A DNA stretch of 4,389 nt, taken from IMG/VR virus record IMGVR_UViG_2711768053_000013, positions 1 to 4,389 of that record. One strand, given 5' to 3'. The notes under the pieces are model-generated. The model saw only the letters and a list, made by a program, of their open reading frames with translations, had not been told where the DNA came from and ran no database searches. Source of the stretch: a virus (lineage: Duplodnaviria > Heunggongvirae > Uroviricota > Caudoviricetes). Positions 1 to 4,389 of the stretch are shown in pieces (position 1 is the first letter of the stretch; each line of letters opens with the position of its first letter). The translations under genes were made by a program, and so were the position numbers.

Positions 1-1
1 T

Positions 2-958
2 CTGATAGTCACAGACCCGCCATACTTTAAAGTGAAGCCCGAGGGCTGGGATAACCAGTGGAAGGGCGACGATGATTACCTGAAATGGCTGGATCAGTGT
101 CTGGCGCAATTCTGGCGGGTACTGAAACCTGCCGGAAGTCTCTACCTGTTCTGTGGTCATCGTCTGGCATCTGACACCGAAATCATGATGCGTGAGCACT
201 TTAATGTGCTGAACCACATTATCTGGGCGAAGCCGTCCGGGCGCTGGAACGGATGCAACAAGGAAAGCCTGCGGGCGTATTTCCCGGCAACAGAACGCAT
301 TCTGTTTGCAGAACATTATCAGGGGCCATACCAACCCAAAAATGACGGCTATGCGGCAAAGGGGCGCGAGCTAAAACAGCACGTCATGGCCCCGCTGATT
401 TCTTACTTTCGTGATGCGCGTGAATCACTGGGAATAACGTCAAAACAGATAGCGGAAGCCACCGGAAAGAAAAACATGGCTTCGCACTGGTTTGGTATCT
501 GTCAGTGGCAGTTACCGAACGAGGGTGATTACAACAAATTGCAGGCGTTGTTTGCGCGTGTTGCGGCAGAAAAACATCAGCGCGGGGAACTGGAAAAGCC
601 ACACCGCCAACTGGTAAGCACATACAGTGAACTGAACCGGCAATATGCCAGCTTGCTGGAAGAGTACAAATCCCTGCGGCGTTATTTTTCCGTATCGGCA
701 GCTGTTCCTTATACGGATGTCTGGACGCATAAACCCGTGCAGTTTTATCCGGGCAAACATCCCTGTGAAAAACCAGCCGATATGTTGCGCCAGATAATTA
801 CTGCCAGCAGCCGTCCGGGTGATTTGGTTGCTGATTTTTTCATGGGCTCAGGCTCAACAATAAAAGCAGCACTTTCACTGGGACGCCGTGCGATTGGCGT
901 GGAACTGGAAGAAGAGAGATTTAATCAGACTGTAACTGAAATAAAAAATATCTGTTAA
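2..958 (+). CDS. DNA N6-adenine (amino) methyltransferase, beta-class; 5'-truncated by the window edge
   Basis: Frame 2 is open from the window edge and begins LIVTDPPYFK (DPPY catalytic motif IV). An AdoMet-binding FxGxG motif (DFFMGSGST) lies near the C-terminus, giving the motif IV-before-motif I order of beta-class amino-MTases. Stop TAA at 956-958. The ORF track starts at GTG 32 only because the true start lies upstream of the window. Confidence 0.85.
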   Translation: MIVTDPPYFKVKPEGWDNQWKGDDDYLKWLDQCLAQFWRVLKPAGSLYLFCGHRLASDTEIMMREHFNVLNHIIWAKPSGRWNGCNKESLRAYFPATERILFAEHYQGPYQPKNDGYAAKGRELKQHVMAPLISYFRDARESLGITSKQIAEATGKKNMASHWFGICQWQLPNEGDYNKLQALFARVAAEKHQRGELEKPHRQLVSTYSELNRQYASLLEEYKSLRRYFSVSAAVPYTDVWTHKPVQFYPGKHPCEKPADMLRQIITASSRPGDLVADFFMGSGSTIKAALSLGRRAIGVELEEERFNQTVTEIKNIC

Positions 959-1038
959 TTGTGTATGGTGTTATTTCTTATAATTCCGGAATAATAAAAA
1001 TATATATGTATATTTACAATTGCTGACGAGCATTTTTA

Positions 1039-1066
1039 TTGAAAGCGTCCGGGGTATTCGTATTAT
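1039..1066 (+). promoter_or_regulatory. candidate sigma70 promoter for the tRNA array (-35 TTGAAA, 16-bp spacer, -10 TATTAT)
   Basis: TTGAAA at 1039-1044 and TATTAT at 1061-1066. An A+T-rich tract (about 990-1035) lies upstream, UP-element-like. A GC-rich stretch (GCGCTGCGCC, 1068-1077) follows the -10, resembling the discriminator of stable-RNA promoters. Position fits a start roughly 25 nt before the first tRNA. Confidence 0.4.
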
Positions 1067-1098
1067 TGCGCTGCGCCAGAGCAATGATGCAATGGGCA

Positions 1099-1175
1099 GG
1101 CCCTTTAGCTCAGTTGGTCAGAGCGAGCGACTCATAATCGCCAGGTCGCTGGTTCAAGTCCAGCAAGGGCCACCA
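1099..1175 (+). tRNA. tRNA-Ile2 (anticodon CAT, lysidine-type; a Met reading cannot be excluded from the anticodon alone)
   Basis: Cloverleaf read by hand: 7-bp acceptor stem GGCCCTT/AAGGGCC, T8 A9, D-stem GCTC/GAGC, anticodon loop CTCATAA (CAT at 1133-1135), T-arm GCTGG-TTCAAGT-CCAGC, discriminator A, encoded CCA. Closely resembles my recollection of E. coli tRNA-Ile2 (ileX-type). Confidence 0.9.
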
Positions 1176-1176
1176 G

Positions 1177-1253
1177 CCGCCACTAGCTCATCCGGATAGA
1201 GCATCAACCTTCTAAGTTGATGGTGCGAGGTTCGAGTCCTCGGTGGCGGGCCA
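1177..1253 (+). tRNA. tRNA-Arg (anticodon TCT, reads AGA)
   Basis: Acceptor CCGCCAC/GTGGCGG (7 bp), T8 A9, D-stem GCTC/GAGC, anticodon stem TCAAC/GTTGA with loop CTTCTAA (TCT at 1211-1213), T-arm CGAGG-TTCGAGT-CCTCG, discriminator G, encoded CCA. Begins only 1 nt after the previous tRNA. Unusually starts with C1-G72. Confidence 0.85.
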
Positions 1254-1255
1254 GT

Positions 1256-1331
<76 letters not shown>

Positions 1332-1334
1332 TAT

Positions 1335-1409
<75 letters not shown>

Positions 1410-1544
1410 GCAGAGGACGATAGATACTAGGTTGTGTTTAGGCACTGACACATTTTATGTGGGGCGTTTTTCCTGACTCCTTACCTCGCCCTGTACTGTA
1501 ATGAGAGATATCTGTTGCAGCACCAGTGCCATTTTTTACGCCAC

Positions 1545-1610
1545 CGGAATGGTGCATTATTGGTAGAGATTTGCAATGTCTCTGGCAGGGGCTGGTAATG
1601 CATCATTCCG
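1545..1610. repeat. long imperfect inverted repeat (15-bp arms) with a nested 6-bp hairpin
   Basis: Arm 1 CGGAATGGTGCATTA (1545-1559) and arm 2 TAATGCATCATTCCG (1596-1610) are reverse complements at 14 of 15 positions; the one mismatch is a G-T (G-U in RNA). The 36-nt spacer holds a nested hairpin, AGAGAT (1565-1570) / GTCTCT (1578-1583) around loop TTGCAAT. Confidence 0.7.
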
Positions 1611-1681
1611 ATGTTGTAAGCATCGCTCAGAATAACGTTGAGATTAATCGCGTACTAAGCAAAACCTGGAAATACATCCTT

Positions 1682-1707
1682 AACCGCCGCACTAGGCGGT
1701 TTTTTTT
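1682..1707 (+). terminator. rho-independent terminator candidate
   Basis: GC stem CCGCC (1684-1688) / GGCGG (1695-1699), 6-nt loop GCACTA, followed directly by eight T (1700-1707). Confidence 0.6.
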
Positions 1708-1792
1708 ATTCATTTTTTTCATGGCTCGCTACGGCGGGCCTTTTCATATCCTCGCCACACCCGGCGTATATCACATCAAATAACGCCGCGCA

Positions 1793-1814
1793 AAAGGCAT
1801 CTGCGGGTGCCTTT
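1793..1814 (+). other. stem-loop (7-bp stem AAAGGCA/TGCCTTT, 8-nt loop) without an immediate U-tract
   Basis: AAAGGCA (1793-1799) pairs with TGCCTTT (1808-1814). No T-run follows, so this is not a canonical terminator; it may be a processing or regulatory structure. Confidence 0.3.
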
Positions 1815-1831
1815 GACGGGGTGTTTTTTAC

Positions 1832-1853
1832 GGGCCGCTGGTGGCCCTTTTTT
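1832..1853 (+). terminator. rho-independent terminator candidate immediately upstream of the holin RBS
   Basis: Stem GGGCC (1832-1836) / GGCCC (1843-1847), loop GCTGGT, then TTTTTT (1848-1853). Ends 7 nt before the AGGAGA Shine-Dalgarno of the holin gene. Confidence 0.55.
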
Positions 1854-1871
1854 ATTTACAGGAGAAAAAGT

Positions 1872-2264
1872 ATGTCTGAACCCTTATCCGGTTCCGGCAC
1901 GGCTGCGGCGCTCGGCGGGGCGACGGTGTACGGGCTGTTTACCGGAACGGATTTCGGGATTGTGTTTGGTGCGTTCGCCGGGGCGTTATTTGTGGCAACG
2001 ATGCCACAGACGCTTTCAGCCTGGCGTGTGGCAGCGCATTTTCTGGTGTCGTTCATTATCGGCGTGCTGGGCGCAGAGGTTCTGGCTGTCTGGCTGGTAA
2101 AGCACACAGGATTTGACAGTGCGCCTGTTGACGCATTGTGTGCAGTACTGGTGTCAGTGGTGTCGGTGAAGATTCTCTCGTTCATCCACCAGCAGGATAT
2201 TGCATCGCTGGTGTCCGGCCTGTTCTCCCGCCTGCGGGGGGGAGGAGGCGGCAATGTTAAGTAA
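1872..2264 (+). CDS. putative holin (130 aa, multi-TM membrane protein); first gene of the lysis cassette
   Basis: ATG at 1872 preceded by AGGAGA (1860-1865). The translation has three to four hydrophobic helices (GGATVYGLFTG, FGIVFGAFAGALFVATM, AAHFLVSFIIGVLGAEVLAVWLV, ALCAVLVSVVSVKILSFI) and a mildly basic tail. It lies directly upstream of, and overlaps, the other lysis genes. Family not identified. Confidence 0.65.
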   Translation: MSEPLSGSGTAAALGGATVYGLFTGTDFGIVFGAFAGALFVATMPQTLSAWRVAAHFLVSFIIGVLGAEVLAVWLVKHTGFDSAPVDALCAVLVSVVSVKILSFIHQQDIASLVSGLFSRLRGGGGGNVK

Positions 2265-2529
2265 CCTTCCCGGATTACTGAATGTGGCGTTATGCATGGT
2301 TATCGTGCTGACGCTCTTTTTTTATCGTCGCCGTGATTCCAGGCATAAACCGCTGATGTCATGGCTGGCCTGGTTGCTGATGCTGCTGTATGCCTTTGCG
2401 CCCCTCAGCTATCTGTGTGGTCGCCCGTTAGCAACGGGCTGGCTGGAAGTGTTTTTTAATCTGCTGTTCTGCGTGCTGGTGATACGCGCGCGCGGGAATG
2501 TCACAAAAATCTTTCCATTGTTGAGGTGA
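2254..2529 (+). CDS. small 3-TM membrane protein (91 aa); possible second holin or antiholin-like lysis accessory
   Basis: ATG at 2254 preceded by GGAGGAGG (2241-2248); overlaps the holin 3' end by 11 nt in another frame. Three hydrophobic segments separated by short basic loops (YRRRDSRHK; RARGNVTK at the C-terminus). Stop TGA at 2527-2529 sits 2 nt before the endolysin start. Confidence 0.6.
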   Translation: MLSNLPGLLNVALCMVIVLTLFFYRRRDSRHKPLMSWLAWLLMLLYAFAPLSYLCGRPLATGWLEVFFNLLFCVLVIRARGNVTKIFPLLR

Positions 2530-2531
2530 AT

Positions 2532-2909
2532 ATGTCGGGTAAATTCAGATTCAGTCGTCGTAGCGAAAAAAATCTGGAGGGCGTCAAACCACAGCTGGTT
2601 GCTGTCGTTCGCCGTGCGCTGGAGCTGACGGAGGTTGATTTCGGTATTACGGAAGGTCTGCGCAGTAAGTATCGCCAGAAACAGCTGGTTGCAGAAGGTA
2701 AGAGCCAGACCATGAACAGCCGCCACCTGACCGGTGATGCTGTGGATGTTGTGGCTTATGTTGGCAGCCAGGTGTCATGGGACTGGCCTCTGTACGAGAA
2801 AATCGCGCAGGCATTTAAGCAGGCTGCCGCAGAGCTGGGAACCGCCATCGAATGGGGCGGGGACTGGAAAACACTGAAAGACGGACCTCACTTTCAGTTG
2901 AAACGATGA
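2532..2909 (+). CDS. endolysin, peptidase M15 family (L-alanyl-D-glutamate peptidase type)
   Basis: ATG at 2532 with GAGG 5 nt upstream. The translation carries an SRHLTGDAVD motif (His65, Asp72) plus a C-terminal His (DGPHFQ), the Zn-ligand arrangement I recall for T5-type L-Ala-D-Glu peptidase endolysins. Size 125 aa, no signal or TM segment. The ORF track start at 2526 is a GTG two codons upstream in the same frame. Confidence 0.85.
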   Translation: MSGKFRFSRRSEKNLEGVKPQLVAVVRRALELTEVDFGITEGLRSKYRQKQLVAEGKSQTMNSRHLTGDAVDVVAYVGSQVSWDWPLYEKIAQAFKQAAAELGTAIEWGGDWKTLKDGPHFQLKR

Positions 2910-2938
2910 CAGCTTTTATTCTGCAGGAGAATGTTTTG

Positions 2939-2982
2939 AAAAAAAATAAACAAAAAGCCGCAGCATCGGCAAATGCAGCGGC
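2939..2982 (-). terminator. rho-independent terminator for the minus-strand gene 3042-3311
   Basis: On the minus strand an imperfect GC-rich hairpin (plus-strand 2957-2982: GCCGCAGC...GCAGCGGC, 7 bp with one A-A mismatch, 10-nt loop) is followed by a T-rich run (complement of the A-run at 2939-2956). Confidence 0.55.
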
Positions 2983-3041
2983 TGGCACAAAAACCGAATT
3001 GTCATTTTTTGAGCAAATTCAGTCAGAGATTATGGCAATAT

Positions 3042-3311
3042 TTAATGAAGTAGTCCGTTAATCTCTCCTCTGATGTTCTCTTGTGATTGTTCCTCGCCTG
3101 CCTCAATACCCCTGGCAATCTGGCTGAAAATAACATTGGCGAGCTTGCCATTGTGTCTGGTTAGCAGGCGTTCACCCTCCTGAAGGAATGAATTGGCTAG
3201 CTCCTGCTTGTCGCAGCCAGTGAGGCTTGCGACTTTTAGTGAGAGGTGAGTCAGAGCCATTTGCTGGCTGCTGATTAAGGCGACAATTACTTCCAGTTGC
3301 TCTTTAGTCAT
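3042..3311 (-). CDS. hypothetical protein, 89 aa, predicted soluble and helical; independently expressed accessory gene
   Basis: ATG (complement of 3309-3311) preceded on the minus strand by AAAAAGGAGTGTTC, an AGGAG Shine-Dalgarno with 5-nt spacing. Own terminator downstream (2939-2982). Opposite orientation to the flanking late genes. No motif recognised in MTKEQLEVIVALISSQQMALTHLSLKVASLTGCDKQELANSFLQEGERLLTRHNGKLANVIFSQIARGIEAGEEQSQENIRGEINGLLH. Confidence 0.6.
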   Translation of the reverse strand: MTKEQLEVIVALISSQQMALTHLSLKVASLTGCDKQELANSFLQEGERLLTRHNGKLANVIFSQIARGIEAGEEQSQENIRGEINGLLH

Positions 3312-3395
3312 GAACACTCCTTTTTGCGTTTAGTTCAGCGGGGATTGTATCAAGTGAATTGCAAAATTATGAGCCGAAAGCACTGGACACACAGA
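3312..3395. promoter_or_regulatory. divergent promoter region between the minus-strand 89-aa gene and the lipoprotein gene
   Basis: The 84-bp gap between the two divergent start codons has a minus-strand extended -10 candidate, TGATACAAT (complement of 3344-3352). It overlaps a plus-strand candidate: -35 TTGTAT (3345-3350), 17-bp spacer, -10 TATGAG (3368-3373). Both are weak to moderate matches. Confidence 0.35.
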
Positions 3396-3551
3396 ATGCC
3401 GCGAACGGCGGCGAAATGGGCACTGGTAGCGATACTGGTGCCTTTTTTCCTGGTGGGATGCGTCAGCCTGGATAAAGCGCGCCAGCTTTTCGATACAGCT
3501 TCTCAGGTCTGTGAAATTGTCGACGGTGTTCGGCAGTGTCTGCAGAACTGA
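3396..3551 (+). CDS. small lipoprotein (51-aa precursor; lipobox LVGC; about 30-aa mature peptide with two further Cys)
   Basis: MPRTAAKWALVAILVPFFLVGC has a basic n-region, a hydrophobic h-region and an L-V-G-C lipobox. The mature part CVSLDKARQLFDTASQVCEIVDGVRQCLQN has two more cysteines. An in-frame ATG at 3369 would add nine residues (MSRKHWTHR). Neither start has a strong Shine-Dalgarno. Confidence 0.5.
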   Translation: MPRTAAKWALVAILVPFFLVGCVSLDKARQLFDTASQVCEIVDGVRQCLQN

Positions 3552-3562
3552 TCACCTGTAAA

Positions 3563-3578
3563 AGCAAAATATTTTGCT
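3563..3578. repeat. perfect 16-bp palindrome AGCAAAATATTTTGCT
   Basis: The sequence equals its own reverse complement. It lies 12 nt after the lipoprotein stop, in the 170-bp gap upstream of the 99-aa gene, and is not followed by a T-run on either strand. Confidence 0.6.
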
Positions 3579-3722
3579 GAAAAATGAAGGATGCGCCAGC
3601 GTCCGGAAAGCATGAAATTCTGTGTTTGTGGCTATTCAATAAAATAAATTCTTTCTGTCGCCGCGAATACTCAAATGTTGAACAGTGCCCGGTGCGGCGA
3701 CGGGCTTCGATATCAGGAGACG

Positions 3723-4022
3723 ATGATGGAAAAAACAGAAAACAAACCGATTGTAATTGGTGCTGATGCTGCTCCGTTTATGTTTGAGTTGTCTCAACTG
3801 GTGGAGATGCGCATCAGTGATGAATGGGGTGAGGTTAAAGCCCGCGCGCAGTATGCGGATGGCGAAAACCAGTACTTGATCCACTACAAAGCAGCTGATG
3901 GTCGCGCCACAACGGAGTGGTTTGGTGAGTCAATGCTGGAAGCAACAGAAGATGATCGCCATCCGGGCTGTCCGGTATTTGCCGGTATGAAATTACCGGA
4001 AGGCGCAGTTGTTACTGAGTAA
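3723..4022 (+). CDS. hypothetical small acidic protein (99 aa)
   Basis: Tandem ATG ATG at 3723/3726 preceded by AGGAGA (3714-3719). About 19 Asp/Glu against 9 Lys/Arg, no hydrophobic segment. Same strand as, and directly upstream of, the HNH endonuclease gene. Confidence 0.6.
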   Translation: MMEKTENKPIVIGADAAPFMFELSQLVEMRISDEWGEVKARAQYADGENQYLIHYKAADGRATTEWFGESMLEATEDDRHPGCPVFAGMKLPEGAVVTE

Positions 4023-4083
4023 CAGGCATTACAGCAGCCCTTCAGTGAGGGGCTGCGATAATGCCGGTATTAAGGAGATTCCA

Positions 4084-4389
4084 ATGCCATCACGAATACC
4101 CCGCGCCTGTCGTAAGCGTGGATGTGCAGGCACAACAACAGACAGTTCGGGTTACTGCGATAAGCATCGCGGTGAAGGCTGGGTGCAGCACCAGCGCGGA
4201 CTGAGCCGCCACCAGCGTGGCTATGGCTCAAAATGGACGGTGATTCGTGCCCGTATTCTGAAGCGCGATAAAGGTCTGTGTCAGTTGTGTCTGCGTGTCG
4301 GTGTGGTGAGCGAGGCGAAAACCGTCGACCACATCATCCCGAAAGCGCATGGCGGAACAGACGCAGATAGCAACCTGCAGAGTCTGTGC
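4084..4389 (+). CDS. HNH endonuclease (phage packaging-associated type); 3'-truncated by the window edge
   Basis: ATG at 4084 with AAGGAG (4072-4077) 6 nt upstream. Hand translation MPSRIPRACRKRGCAGTTTDSSGYCDKHRGEGWVQHQRGLSRHQRGYGSKWTVIRARILKRDKGLCQLCLRVGVVSEAKTVDHIIPKAHGGTDADSNLQSLC shows Cys pairs (CxxC...CxxC) and the DHIIPxxxGG...N HNH core. Open to the end of the window. Confidence 0.85.
   Translation, partial: MPSRIPRACRKRGCAGTTTDSSGYCDKHRGEGWVQHQRGLSRHQRGYGSKWTVIRARILKRDKGLCQLCLRVGVVSEAKTVDHIIPKAHGGTDADSNLQSLC

Follow-up and report, generated by a model that had tools for sequence, protein, structure and literature searches.

The stretch analysed here (the window) comprises 4,389 nt, positions 1 to 4,389 of the IMG/VR virus record IMGVR_UViG_2711768053_000013 (Caudoviricetes), and carries an inverted repeat that forms the centre of a conserved hairpin under selection as folded + strand RNA. 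Coordinates are positions of the window, on the + strand unless stated otherwise. The window covers the late region of a stx-less lambdoid prophage of P27-like type in Escherichia coli and shares 99.8% identity with a prophage carried by E. coli ESC818. According to the RefSeq annotation of ESC818, and to ARAGORN and Rfam applied to the window, the gene order is the antitermination gene Q, a 66-aa open reading frame (ORF), a DNA methyltransferase gene (methylase; 32–958), four tRNA genes, a spacer, two holin genes and an M15 endolysin gene, beyond which lie an HNH endonuclease gene and then a P27-family terminase gene; Q and the 66-aa ORF fall upstream, outside the window. The tRNA genes, reported by all three sources on the + strand, are tRNA-Ile2 (CAT; 1099–1175), tRNA-Arg (TCT; 1177–1253), tRNA-Thr (TGT; 1256–1331) and tRNA-Gly (TCC; 1335–1409), and score 58–70 bits against the Rfam tRNA models. 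The spacer from tRNA-Gly to the holin start codon (1872, + strand) is about 460 nt long and contains no annotated gene in ESC818. Our analysis shows that the hairpin in this spacer is the second domain of an approximately 300-nt structured non-coding 3' trailer of the prophage tRNA operon (Ile2-Arg-Thr-Gly), and that lambdoid prophages of Escherichia, P27-like and others, carry the operon with its trailer in their late region.

The original prediction, made from the letters of the window alone, described a 66-bp repeat with 15-nt arms and a nested 6-bp hairpin, and judged such arms unlikely to arise by chance in 4.4 kb. Direct reading of the sequence agrees with this description. The arms, CGGAATGGTGCATTA at 1545–1559 and TAATGCATCATTCCG at 1596–1610, match as complements at all but one of 15 positions, and this exception, G1552/T1603, becomes G·U in RNA. 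The nested hairpin consists of AGAGAT (1565–1570), the loop TTGCAAT (1571–1577) and GTCTCT (1578–1583), with six pairs including one U·G. The window holds a single inverted repeat with 15-nt arms, at most one mismatch and a loop of 3–100 nt, and any repeat of this kind was seen in just 2% of 100 mononucleotide-shuffled windows. The inverted repeat is thus real and above chance. As RNA, the interval 1545–1610 folds at −31.9 kcal/mol (z −5.78; none of 200 shuffles equalled it), against −18.0 kcal/mol for the − strand.

The proposed extent of 66 bp stood as a real structured interval and fell short of the whole helix. A repeat search lists this as the second-longest inverted repeat in the window and extends the arms to 24 nt (1536–1559 / 1596–1619), and folding of 1535–1620 as RNA gives 34 pairs at −38.2 kcal/mol (z −5.05; −27.8 kcal/mol on the − strand). 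This complete hairpin, also recovered by covariation counts, RNAalifold and a covariance model, has a predicted basal stem (1535–1540/1615–1620 and 1542–1543/1612–1613), a core helix of 20 uninterrupted bp visible both in the sequence and in the folds (1545–1564 / 1591–1610) and, enclosed by the latter, the apical 6-bp hairpin AGAGAU/GUCUCU with loop UUGCAAU (1565–1583), which is 96.5% paired by pair counts, and a 7-nt unpaired 3' bulge, GGCAGGG (1584–1590), placed by the alignments between the apical hairpin and the core helix. Minimum-free-energy (MFE) folds and covariation further indicate a small alternative hairpin, CGAUGUU/AGCAUCG (1609–1625); it and the basal part of the long stem (1535–1540 / 1615–1620) are mutually exclusive.

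To follow the pairing among homologues we aligned 48 distinct variants and scored them on the 34 pairs of the window's MFE structure. Standard pairs fill 97.0% of the pair cells, against 34–54% when the 3' partners are slid by one to three columns, and nine pairs show two-sided compensatory changes. Pair 1546/1609, for example, alternates between G-C and A-U (24 versus 19 sequences), and two of the six apical pairs have changed on both sides, the closing pair being GC, AU or UA. The apical pairing is kept while the letters of stem and loop differ (GGAGAU/AUUUCC; GGGYU/AGCCC), the loop varying freely. None of 500 column shuffles, a control that ignores phylogeny, matched the observed paired fraction, the covariation score or the number of two-sided pairs. 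The small hairpin at 1609–1625 behaves similarly: all six of its pairs form in 41 of the 48 variants, against 13% of shuffles, and it covaries (GAUGUU/AACAUC versus GGUGUU/AACACC).

The conservation is strand-specific. The helix is paired at 97.0% on the + strand and at 78.7% on the − strand, and nearly all of the non-Watson-Crick cells are G·U on the + strand (320, versus 22 A·C). This asymmetry indicates that selection acts on the + strand transcript. A covariance model built from the 48-variant alignment scores the sense strand at 79–119 bits and the antisense strand at 27–51 bits, and RNAalifold applied to 21 diverse whole trailers recovers the same long hairpin independently. Selection at the RNA level, suggested beforehand from the single G·U pair, is therefore borne out by the strand asymmetry and the nine compensated pairs. 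Two observations had been named in advance as ones that would speak against it, a loss of pairing among homologues and a conserved coding gene across the region; pairing is conserved across homologues, and no conserved reading frame was found (see below).

Pairing is not the only feature that is kept. Mean pairwise identity is 0.79 in the hairpin and 0.40–0.53 in its flanks, the helix centre is nearly invariant in sequence, and the bulge (U)GGCAGG is present in essentially all variants. The hairpin is thus an island of sequence conservation, which suggests recognition beyond mere pairing. A search for a complementary partner of the bulge GGCAGGG found none in the trailer, and in the window as a whole only 6–7-mers inside the methylase gene.

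Upstream of the hairpin, the trailer contains a multi-branched domain, here called domain 1 (1441–1530, + strand), predicted by folding and RNAalifold to be closed by GGCACUG (1441–1447) and CAGUGCC (1524–1530). Its MFE fold in the window has −32.6 kcal/mol (z −3.75). RNAalifold on the 21 trailers recovers the closing stem with six invariant pairs and one that varies between G-C, G·U and A-U, and the inner hairpins also show two-sided changes, such as UA to CG (9 versus 9 sequences). A U-run (1532–1537) follows directly, and 6–8 U are kept at this place among homologues. Just past the small 3' hairpin, homology between prophages switches to one of two unrelated tails. Type A, the form found in the window (1621–1709, + strand; terminator scan, trailer alignment and fold), consists of a conserved and largely unstructured stretch, …UAAGCAAAACCUGGAAAUACAUCCUUAA, that leads into an intrinsic terminator with a 7-bp GC-rich stem and eight U; it has the shape of the 3' end of an Hfq-type small RNA (sRNA), and gave no significant match in Rfam. 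Type B is a structured RNA of about 190 nt that resembles a divergent STnc100 (24.4 bits, E about 0.002–0.004, below the gathering score of 47), and it too has the look of an sRNA 3' end. It was found at 2580–2776 of locus L013 and likewise in L012, L014, L015 and many IMG/VR loci, and shares a CGGGAGGCACCCG core. The STnc100/PasD family may thus be wider than the Rfam threshold captures. The presence of two unrelated tails behind one hairpin fits a conserved processing module placed before variable cargo.

The element is frequent in E. coli. A 201-nt query around the hairpin matches 393 of 5,426 complete E. coli genomes (about 7%), at one to five places per genome (median 1) and with 70–92% identity; many of the matches span the hairpin alone. 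A pattern scan of IMG/VR gave at least 120 prophage contigs, and just two deposited phage records carry the hairpin. With a looser pattern applied to one genome from each of 185,579 species, hits were obtained solely in Shigella flexneri, E. ruysiae and E. coli; this pattern is still strict, so that divergent relatives in other genera are possible. Of 132 instances, 121 place the hairpin core 153–172 nt downstream of the tRNA-Gly T-arm. The surroundings vary: upstream there are three kinds of Q, with the methylase present or absent, and downstream P27-type or class II holins, preceded by TerB/DUF3927 morons, by toxin genes or by nothing. The fixed distance and the variable flanking genes together indicate that the element is linked to the tRNA-(Thr)-Gly module alone. 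The covariance model finds the hairpin solely after tRNA-Gly, with no copy before the bona fide STnc100 genes of the same loci, so that it belongs to the tRNA trailer and not to STnc100.

Two loci carry the tRNA-Gly and hairpin module twice, 1–1.9 kb apart: SerU-LTIIb (L002; 1399–1506 and 3299–3407) and L117 (7123–7231 and 8126–8236). Two copies in one prophage point to tandem duplication or to recombination at the module. At L011 (NZ_OU342919, 2420–2545), where tRNA-Gly is missing from the neighbourhood, a gene cluster of the subtilase-type AB5 / enterotoxin A kind is followed by a degenerate form of the hairpin, AT-rich and shortened, to which the covariance model gives no match.

The transcript that bears the hairpin could arise in two ways. 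A consensus scan identified a promoter-like site, TTGAAA-16-TATTAT with a GC-rich discriminator, at 1039–1066 on the + strand (10 of 12 matches), which is the likely start of this transcript in lysogens. By eye, TTGnnn-16/17-TATTAT or TATTAA also precedes the first tRNA in L003–L005, L008 and L012–L016. Promoter-like sites upstream of the tRNA arrays suggest that the phage tRNAs and the trailer are probably expressed in lysogens independently of Q. Outside the window, about 2.1 kb upstream of the hairpin and directly 3' of Q, there are a pR'-like promoter (TTGATT-17-TAAATT) and two terminators; in the ESC818 locus (L001) Q ends at 3926, the pR'-like site is at 3932–3960, the terminators are at 3960–4035 and the hairpin is at about 6125–6210. 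A terminator scan of the window returned six sites against 1.1 expected, and three terminator-like sites on the + strand stand between the hairpin and the holin start: 1682–1709 (stem 1682–1701, eight U), 1723–1748 and 1832–1857. The hairpin had been placed upstream of the first terminator; 1682–1709 is indeed the first after it inside the window, but the tR'-type terminators of the late operon lie further upstream, after Q and outside the window.

Some further features of the locus deserve mention. ARAGORN calls the tRNA at 1099–1175 tRNA-Met (CAT), whereas RefSeq calls the identical ESC818 gene tRNA-Ile, that is, the Ile2 or lysidine-modified type. A 17-nt stretch across the junction of tRNA-Ile and tRNA-Arg (1165–1181), from the 3' end of the former into the start of the latter, is complementary at 16 of 17 positions to 1833–1849 in the stem of the third terminator; this match could reflect chance, contact between distant parts of the RNA or a remnant derived from a tRNA. 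Another inverted repeat (4022–4068), with a 1-nt loop and 23-nt arms of 83% complementarity, separates the stop codon of ORF 3675–4022 from the HNH endonuclease gene and looks like a terminator or other RNA hairpin. In phage phiP27 (AJ298298, 2599–4178) the order is methylase, ileZ, argO, stxA2e, stxB2e and holin. The slot of stxA2e/stxB2e in phiP27 is thus occupied in the window by tRNA-Thr, tRNA-Gly and the structured spacer.

Several identities of the hairpin were considered and rejected. A qut-like antitermination element, one of the functions originally put forward, had to be abandoned: qut overlaps or directly follows pR', whereas the hairpin lies some 2.1 kb downstream of the pR'-like promoter, and there is no linkage to one Q family, at least three co-occurring with the hairpin (a 273-aa 'antitermination protein', DUF1133 and PF03589-type Q). 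The hairpin is not an intrinsic terminator either, as the helix is followed on its 3' side by GCAUCGCUCAG, which has no U-run, and the sole hit of the terminator scan within the helix (1539–1554) is a weak sub-stem. Dispersed repeats of the REP/BIME, ERIC or MITE kind do not fit an element that occurs at few places per genome, each within the late region of a prophage and with constant spacing to tRNA-Gly. A scan against the Rfam 15 families (including STnc100, AgvB, AsxR, Esr41, C4, riboswitches and ribozymes), run on the window in E-value mode and on 17 loci in gathering mode, gave only chance matches to microRNA-precursor models over the hairpin (16.9–23.6 bits against gathering scores of 50–100; E 0.04–4), and otherwise tRNAs and STnc100 copies elsewhere. 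PasA and PasC were excluded, as a BLAST comparison of the spacer with the two E2348/69 loci, pasA and pasC, gave nothing better than E 5; in that strain the two RNAs are antisense to late genes, between the esterase and holin genes, and inspection of the PP2 and PP5 late regions of E2348/69 showed the hairpin to be absent there. Integron attC, retron msd and Y-RNA-like readings were set aside, as their defining motifs do not seem to fit and no integrase, reverse transcriptase or Rsr gene lies nearby. A full-text literature search, by sequence and by lambdoid, tRNA, RNase III and hairpin topics, returned no description of the element. We conclude that it is uncatalogued, a conserved cis-acting RNA hairpin or non-coding RNA (ncRNA) domain of a phage transcript, so far restricted to Escherichia/Shigella prophages.

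Among the functions that can be proposed on this basis, we tentatively favour that of a double-stranded RNA element for processing or stability, of the RNase III type and located within the tRNA operon's 3' trailer, to which we would assign a probability of roughly 40%. The two other roles originally suggested, a processing site of the tRNA precursor and a small RNA domain, both remain plausible, and the former is the best available idea. In this scenario the trailer would be transcribed from the sigma-70 promoter of the tRNA array itself in lysogens, and from pR' on induction, by polymerase that Q has modified. Release of tRNA-Gly by RNase P and RNase E would free the trailer. The long helix, which counts 28 bp with 20 of them uninterrupted and bears a short-hairpin cap and the conserved 3' bulge, would then act as a processing or stability element, most likely as an RNase III substrate, and cleavage or binding at the helix would part the downstream RNA from the tRNA precursor and set the ends and stability of the former. 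This downstream RNA would be an sRNA-like tail reaching to the 1682–1709 terminator or, on read-through, the lysis messenger RNA (mRNA).

The strand-specific, non-coding structure, its constant place behind tRNA-Gly amid variable neighbours, and the promoter-like sites and terminators that frame the trailer all speak for this proposal, and so do helix length and position. RNase III needs a helix of about 22 bp, or about two turns (PMC6212723), and the hairpin offers 20 uninterrupted bp, eight basal pairs and a 6-bp apical stem, helix length alone having been scored in this comparison. Its position is also that of a tRNA 3' external transcribed spacer (3' ETS), as the end of tRNA-Gly (1409), the hairpin and the first terminator follow one another on the + strand.

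Other observations weigh against it. The homologues are close relatives, all from Escherichia/Shigella, with an effective sequence number of 1.66 in the covariance model, and their shared ancestry inflates the covariation counts. Most of them were recruited by a pattern that fixes purine/pyrimidine classes in part of the helix; the main compensatory changes sit in the 5' arm, outside this pattern, and the loci found by BLAST alone (L003–L016) pair likewise. The U-run at 1532–1537 could end many transcripts before the hairpin is made. Finally, the lack of covariance-model copies beside the bona fide STnc100 genes means that the hairpin is not a general processing cassette placed ahead of STnc100-type sRNAs.

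A role in trans is the nearest competitor, somewhat less probable than the processing element. Here the trailer would give rise to a stable ncRNA with the hairpin as one of its domains, and the helix would be a scaffold or protein-binding site and not a site of cleavage. The trailer, or a processed piece of it, would accumulate once freed from the tRNA precursor and exert its effect by base pairing or with a protein partner, whether as a sponge of sRNAs, as a decoy or as a ligand of Hfq or ProQ. Several features are consistent with this possibility. Both structured domains of the trailer covary, the bulge is conserved and unpaired, the helix centre hardly varies, and a terminator with a long U tail behind a conserved single-stranded stretch is the usual shape of an Hfq-dependent sRNA. 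Moreover, the same lambdoid intergenic zone holds STnc100/PasD, PasA/C, AgvB and AsxR (bioRxiv 10.64898/2026.05.13.724894). On the other hand, there is no significant Rfam match, no complementary partner of the bulge was found nearby, and the apical loop, the usual seed or kissing site, is not conserved in sequence.

A more specific version of this idea, which on the sequence evidence we regard as doubtful, is that domain 1 and the long hairpin (about 190 nt) constitute an undescribed family of stable phage ncRNA, produced constitutively in lysogens from the tRNA promoter and acting in trans. Candidate roles of such an RNA include that of a protein- or nuclease-binding decoy, or of a sponge for sRNAs or tRNA fragments. 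If this were true, it would be the lambdoid counterpart of the unexplained 'species 1/2' RNAs of the T4 tRNA cluster, located in the slot that is occupied by Shiga toxin or LT-II in sister phages.

An action of the hairpin on transcription seems unlikely to us. The hairpin could be a pause site, an insulator, a put-like antitermination signal or part of a termination switch, in which the U-run, the basal stem and the small 3' hairpin would alternate and so set the flow of polymerase to the three terminators and the lysis genes. The conserved run of 6–8 U after the closing stem of domain 1, the mutual exclusion of the basal stem and the covarying small hairpin, and the series of terminator-like sites ahead of the holin gene could all be accommodated in such a switch. 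However, the hairpin has no U-tract on its 3' side and is not itself a terminator, termination at the upstream U-run cannot be rescued by a structure that lies downstream of it, and late transcription is already under Q-dependent antitermination. The strongly conserved core helix plays no part in the alternatives.

Less probable still is a feature of the DNA with no role for RNA, such as a recombination 'linker', a palindromic protein-binding site or a hairpin of single-stranded DNA. The often complete restriction of homology between prophages to the hairpin, the switch of tail type just past it and the duplicated modules of SerU-LTIIb and L117 would suit a recombination site, and the + strand does fold as single-stranded DNA (−17.9 kcal/mol, z −4.2). 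A linker, however, needs identity and not complementarity of the arms, and predicts neither the compensatory changes nor the difference between 97% and 79% pairing on the two strands. A cruciform or an operator would be strand-symmetric. The arms here are 36 nt apart and enclose a nested hairpin that covaries too.

We consider a small protein-coding gene highly improbable. Several genomes have 'hypothetical protein' calls over the stretch homologous to the 85-aa ORF 1526–1783, but its frame stays open for 240 nt or more in just 3 of 76 distinct variants, with no frame consistently open; indels of 1, 2 and 4 nt fall inside it among variants, it runs across two terminators and it has no Pfam match. 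These calls, by RefSeq and its Prokaryotic Genome Annotation Pipeline (PGAP), cover the hairpin and terminators (WP_000904532.1, WP_001741616.1 and WP_201479416.1; for example L005 2493–2753, L007 2493–2804 and L015 2494–2826), while most genomes, including ESC818, annotate nothing there; since the frame is not conserved, they are probably mis-annotations. The structured RNA described here explains this recurrent annotation away.

The spacer between Q or the tRNAs and the lysis genes of lambdoid prophages houses Shiga toxin (stx2e in phiP27), LT-II toxin and virulence-linked sRNAs, and the expression of what lies downstream depends on how the long untranslated spacer RNA is made, cut and stabilized. 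An element present in about 7% of complete E. coli genomes offers a testable handle on the maturation of phage tRNAs from the late transcript, as well as on the fate of the RNA left after their release, and is a candidate new RNA family for Rfam. Its existence is not surprising in principle, yet it is uncatalogued, frequent, tied to phage tRNAs and located in a 'moron' slot for toxins and sRNAs.

With the late-region sRNAs STnc100 (RF02076)/PasD, PasA/PasC, AgvB, AsxR and Esr41 the hairpin shares the space between Q or the tRNAs and the lysis genes. These sRNAs are confined to Escherichia/Shigella and vary in copy number from genome to genome (bioRxiv 10.64898/2026.05.13.724894); PasA and PasC adjoin holin genes, and a longer transcript gives rise to PasA by processing (Pearl Mizrahi 2021; Zhu, Shabalina & Storz 2026). 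In many prophages the divergent STnc100-like RNA comes directly after the hairpin. The hairpin itself differs in that it matches none of them. Like qut, it belongs to a Q-controlled late operon, but qut lies directly after Q and overlaps pR'.

Another parallel may be found in RNAs excised from tRNA transcripts. The trailer appears to resemble 3'ETS-leuZ, from the glyW-cysT-leuZ operon, and species 1 and 2 of the T4 tRNA cluster in being non-coding and co-transcribed with tRNAs; like 3'ETS-leuZ it lies between the last tRNA and the operon terminator and would be released on tRNA maturation. 3'ETS-leuZ, an sRNA sponge, is short and largely unstructured save for its terminator, whereas the present trailer is about 300 nt long and has two covarying structured domains.

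As regards the hairpin itself, its overall shape recalls that of phage RNase III sites. In T7 sites the lower stem is much shorter than the 20–28 bp of this hairpin, and the bulge, unlike theirs, is one-sided; no sequence similarity is claimed. The RNase III hairpins of T7 (R0.3–R18.5), of lambda (the N-leader and sib) and of ribosomal RNA operons are likewise long imperfect hairpins in untranslated spacers, and the element shares with them a short upper stem-loop that is set off from a lower stem by an asymmetric bulge. As in those systems, it is found between RNAs to be separated, here the tRNAs upstream and the sRNA-like tail or the lysis mRNA downstream.

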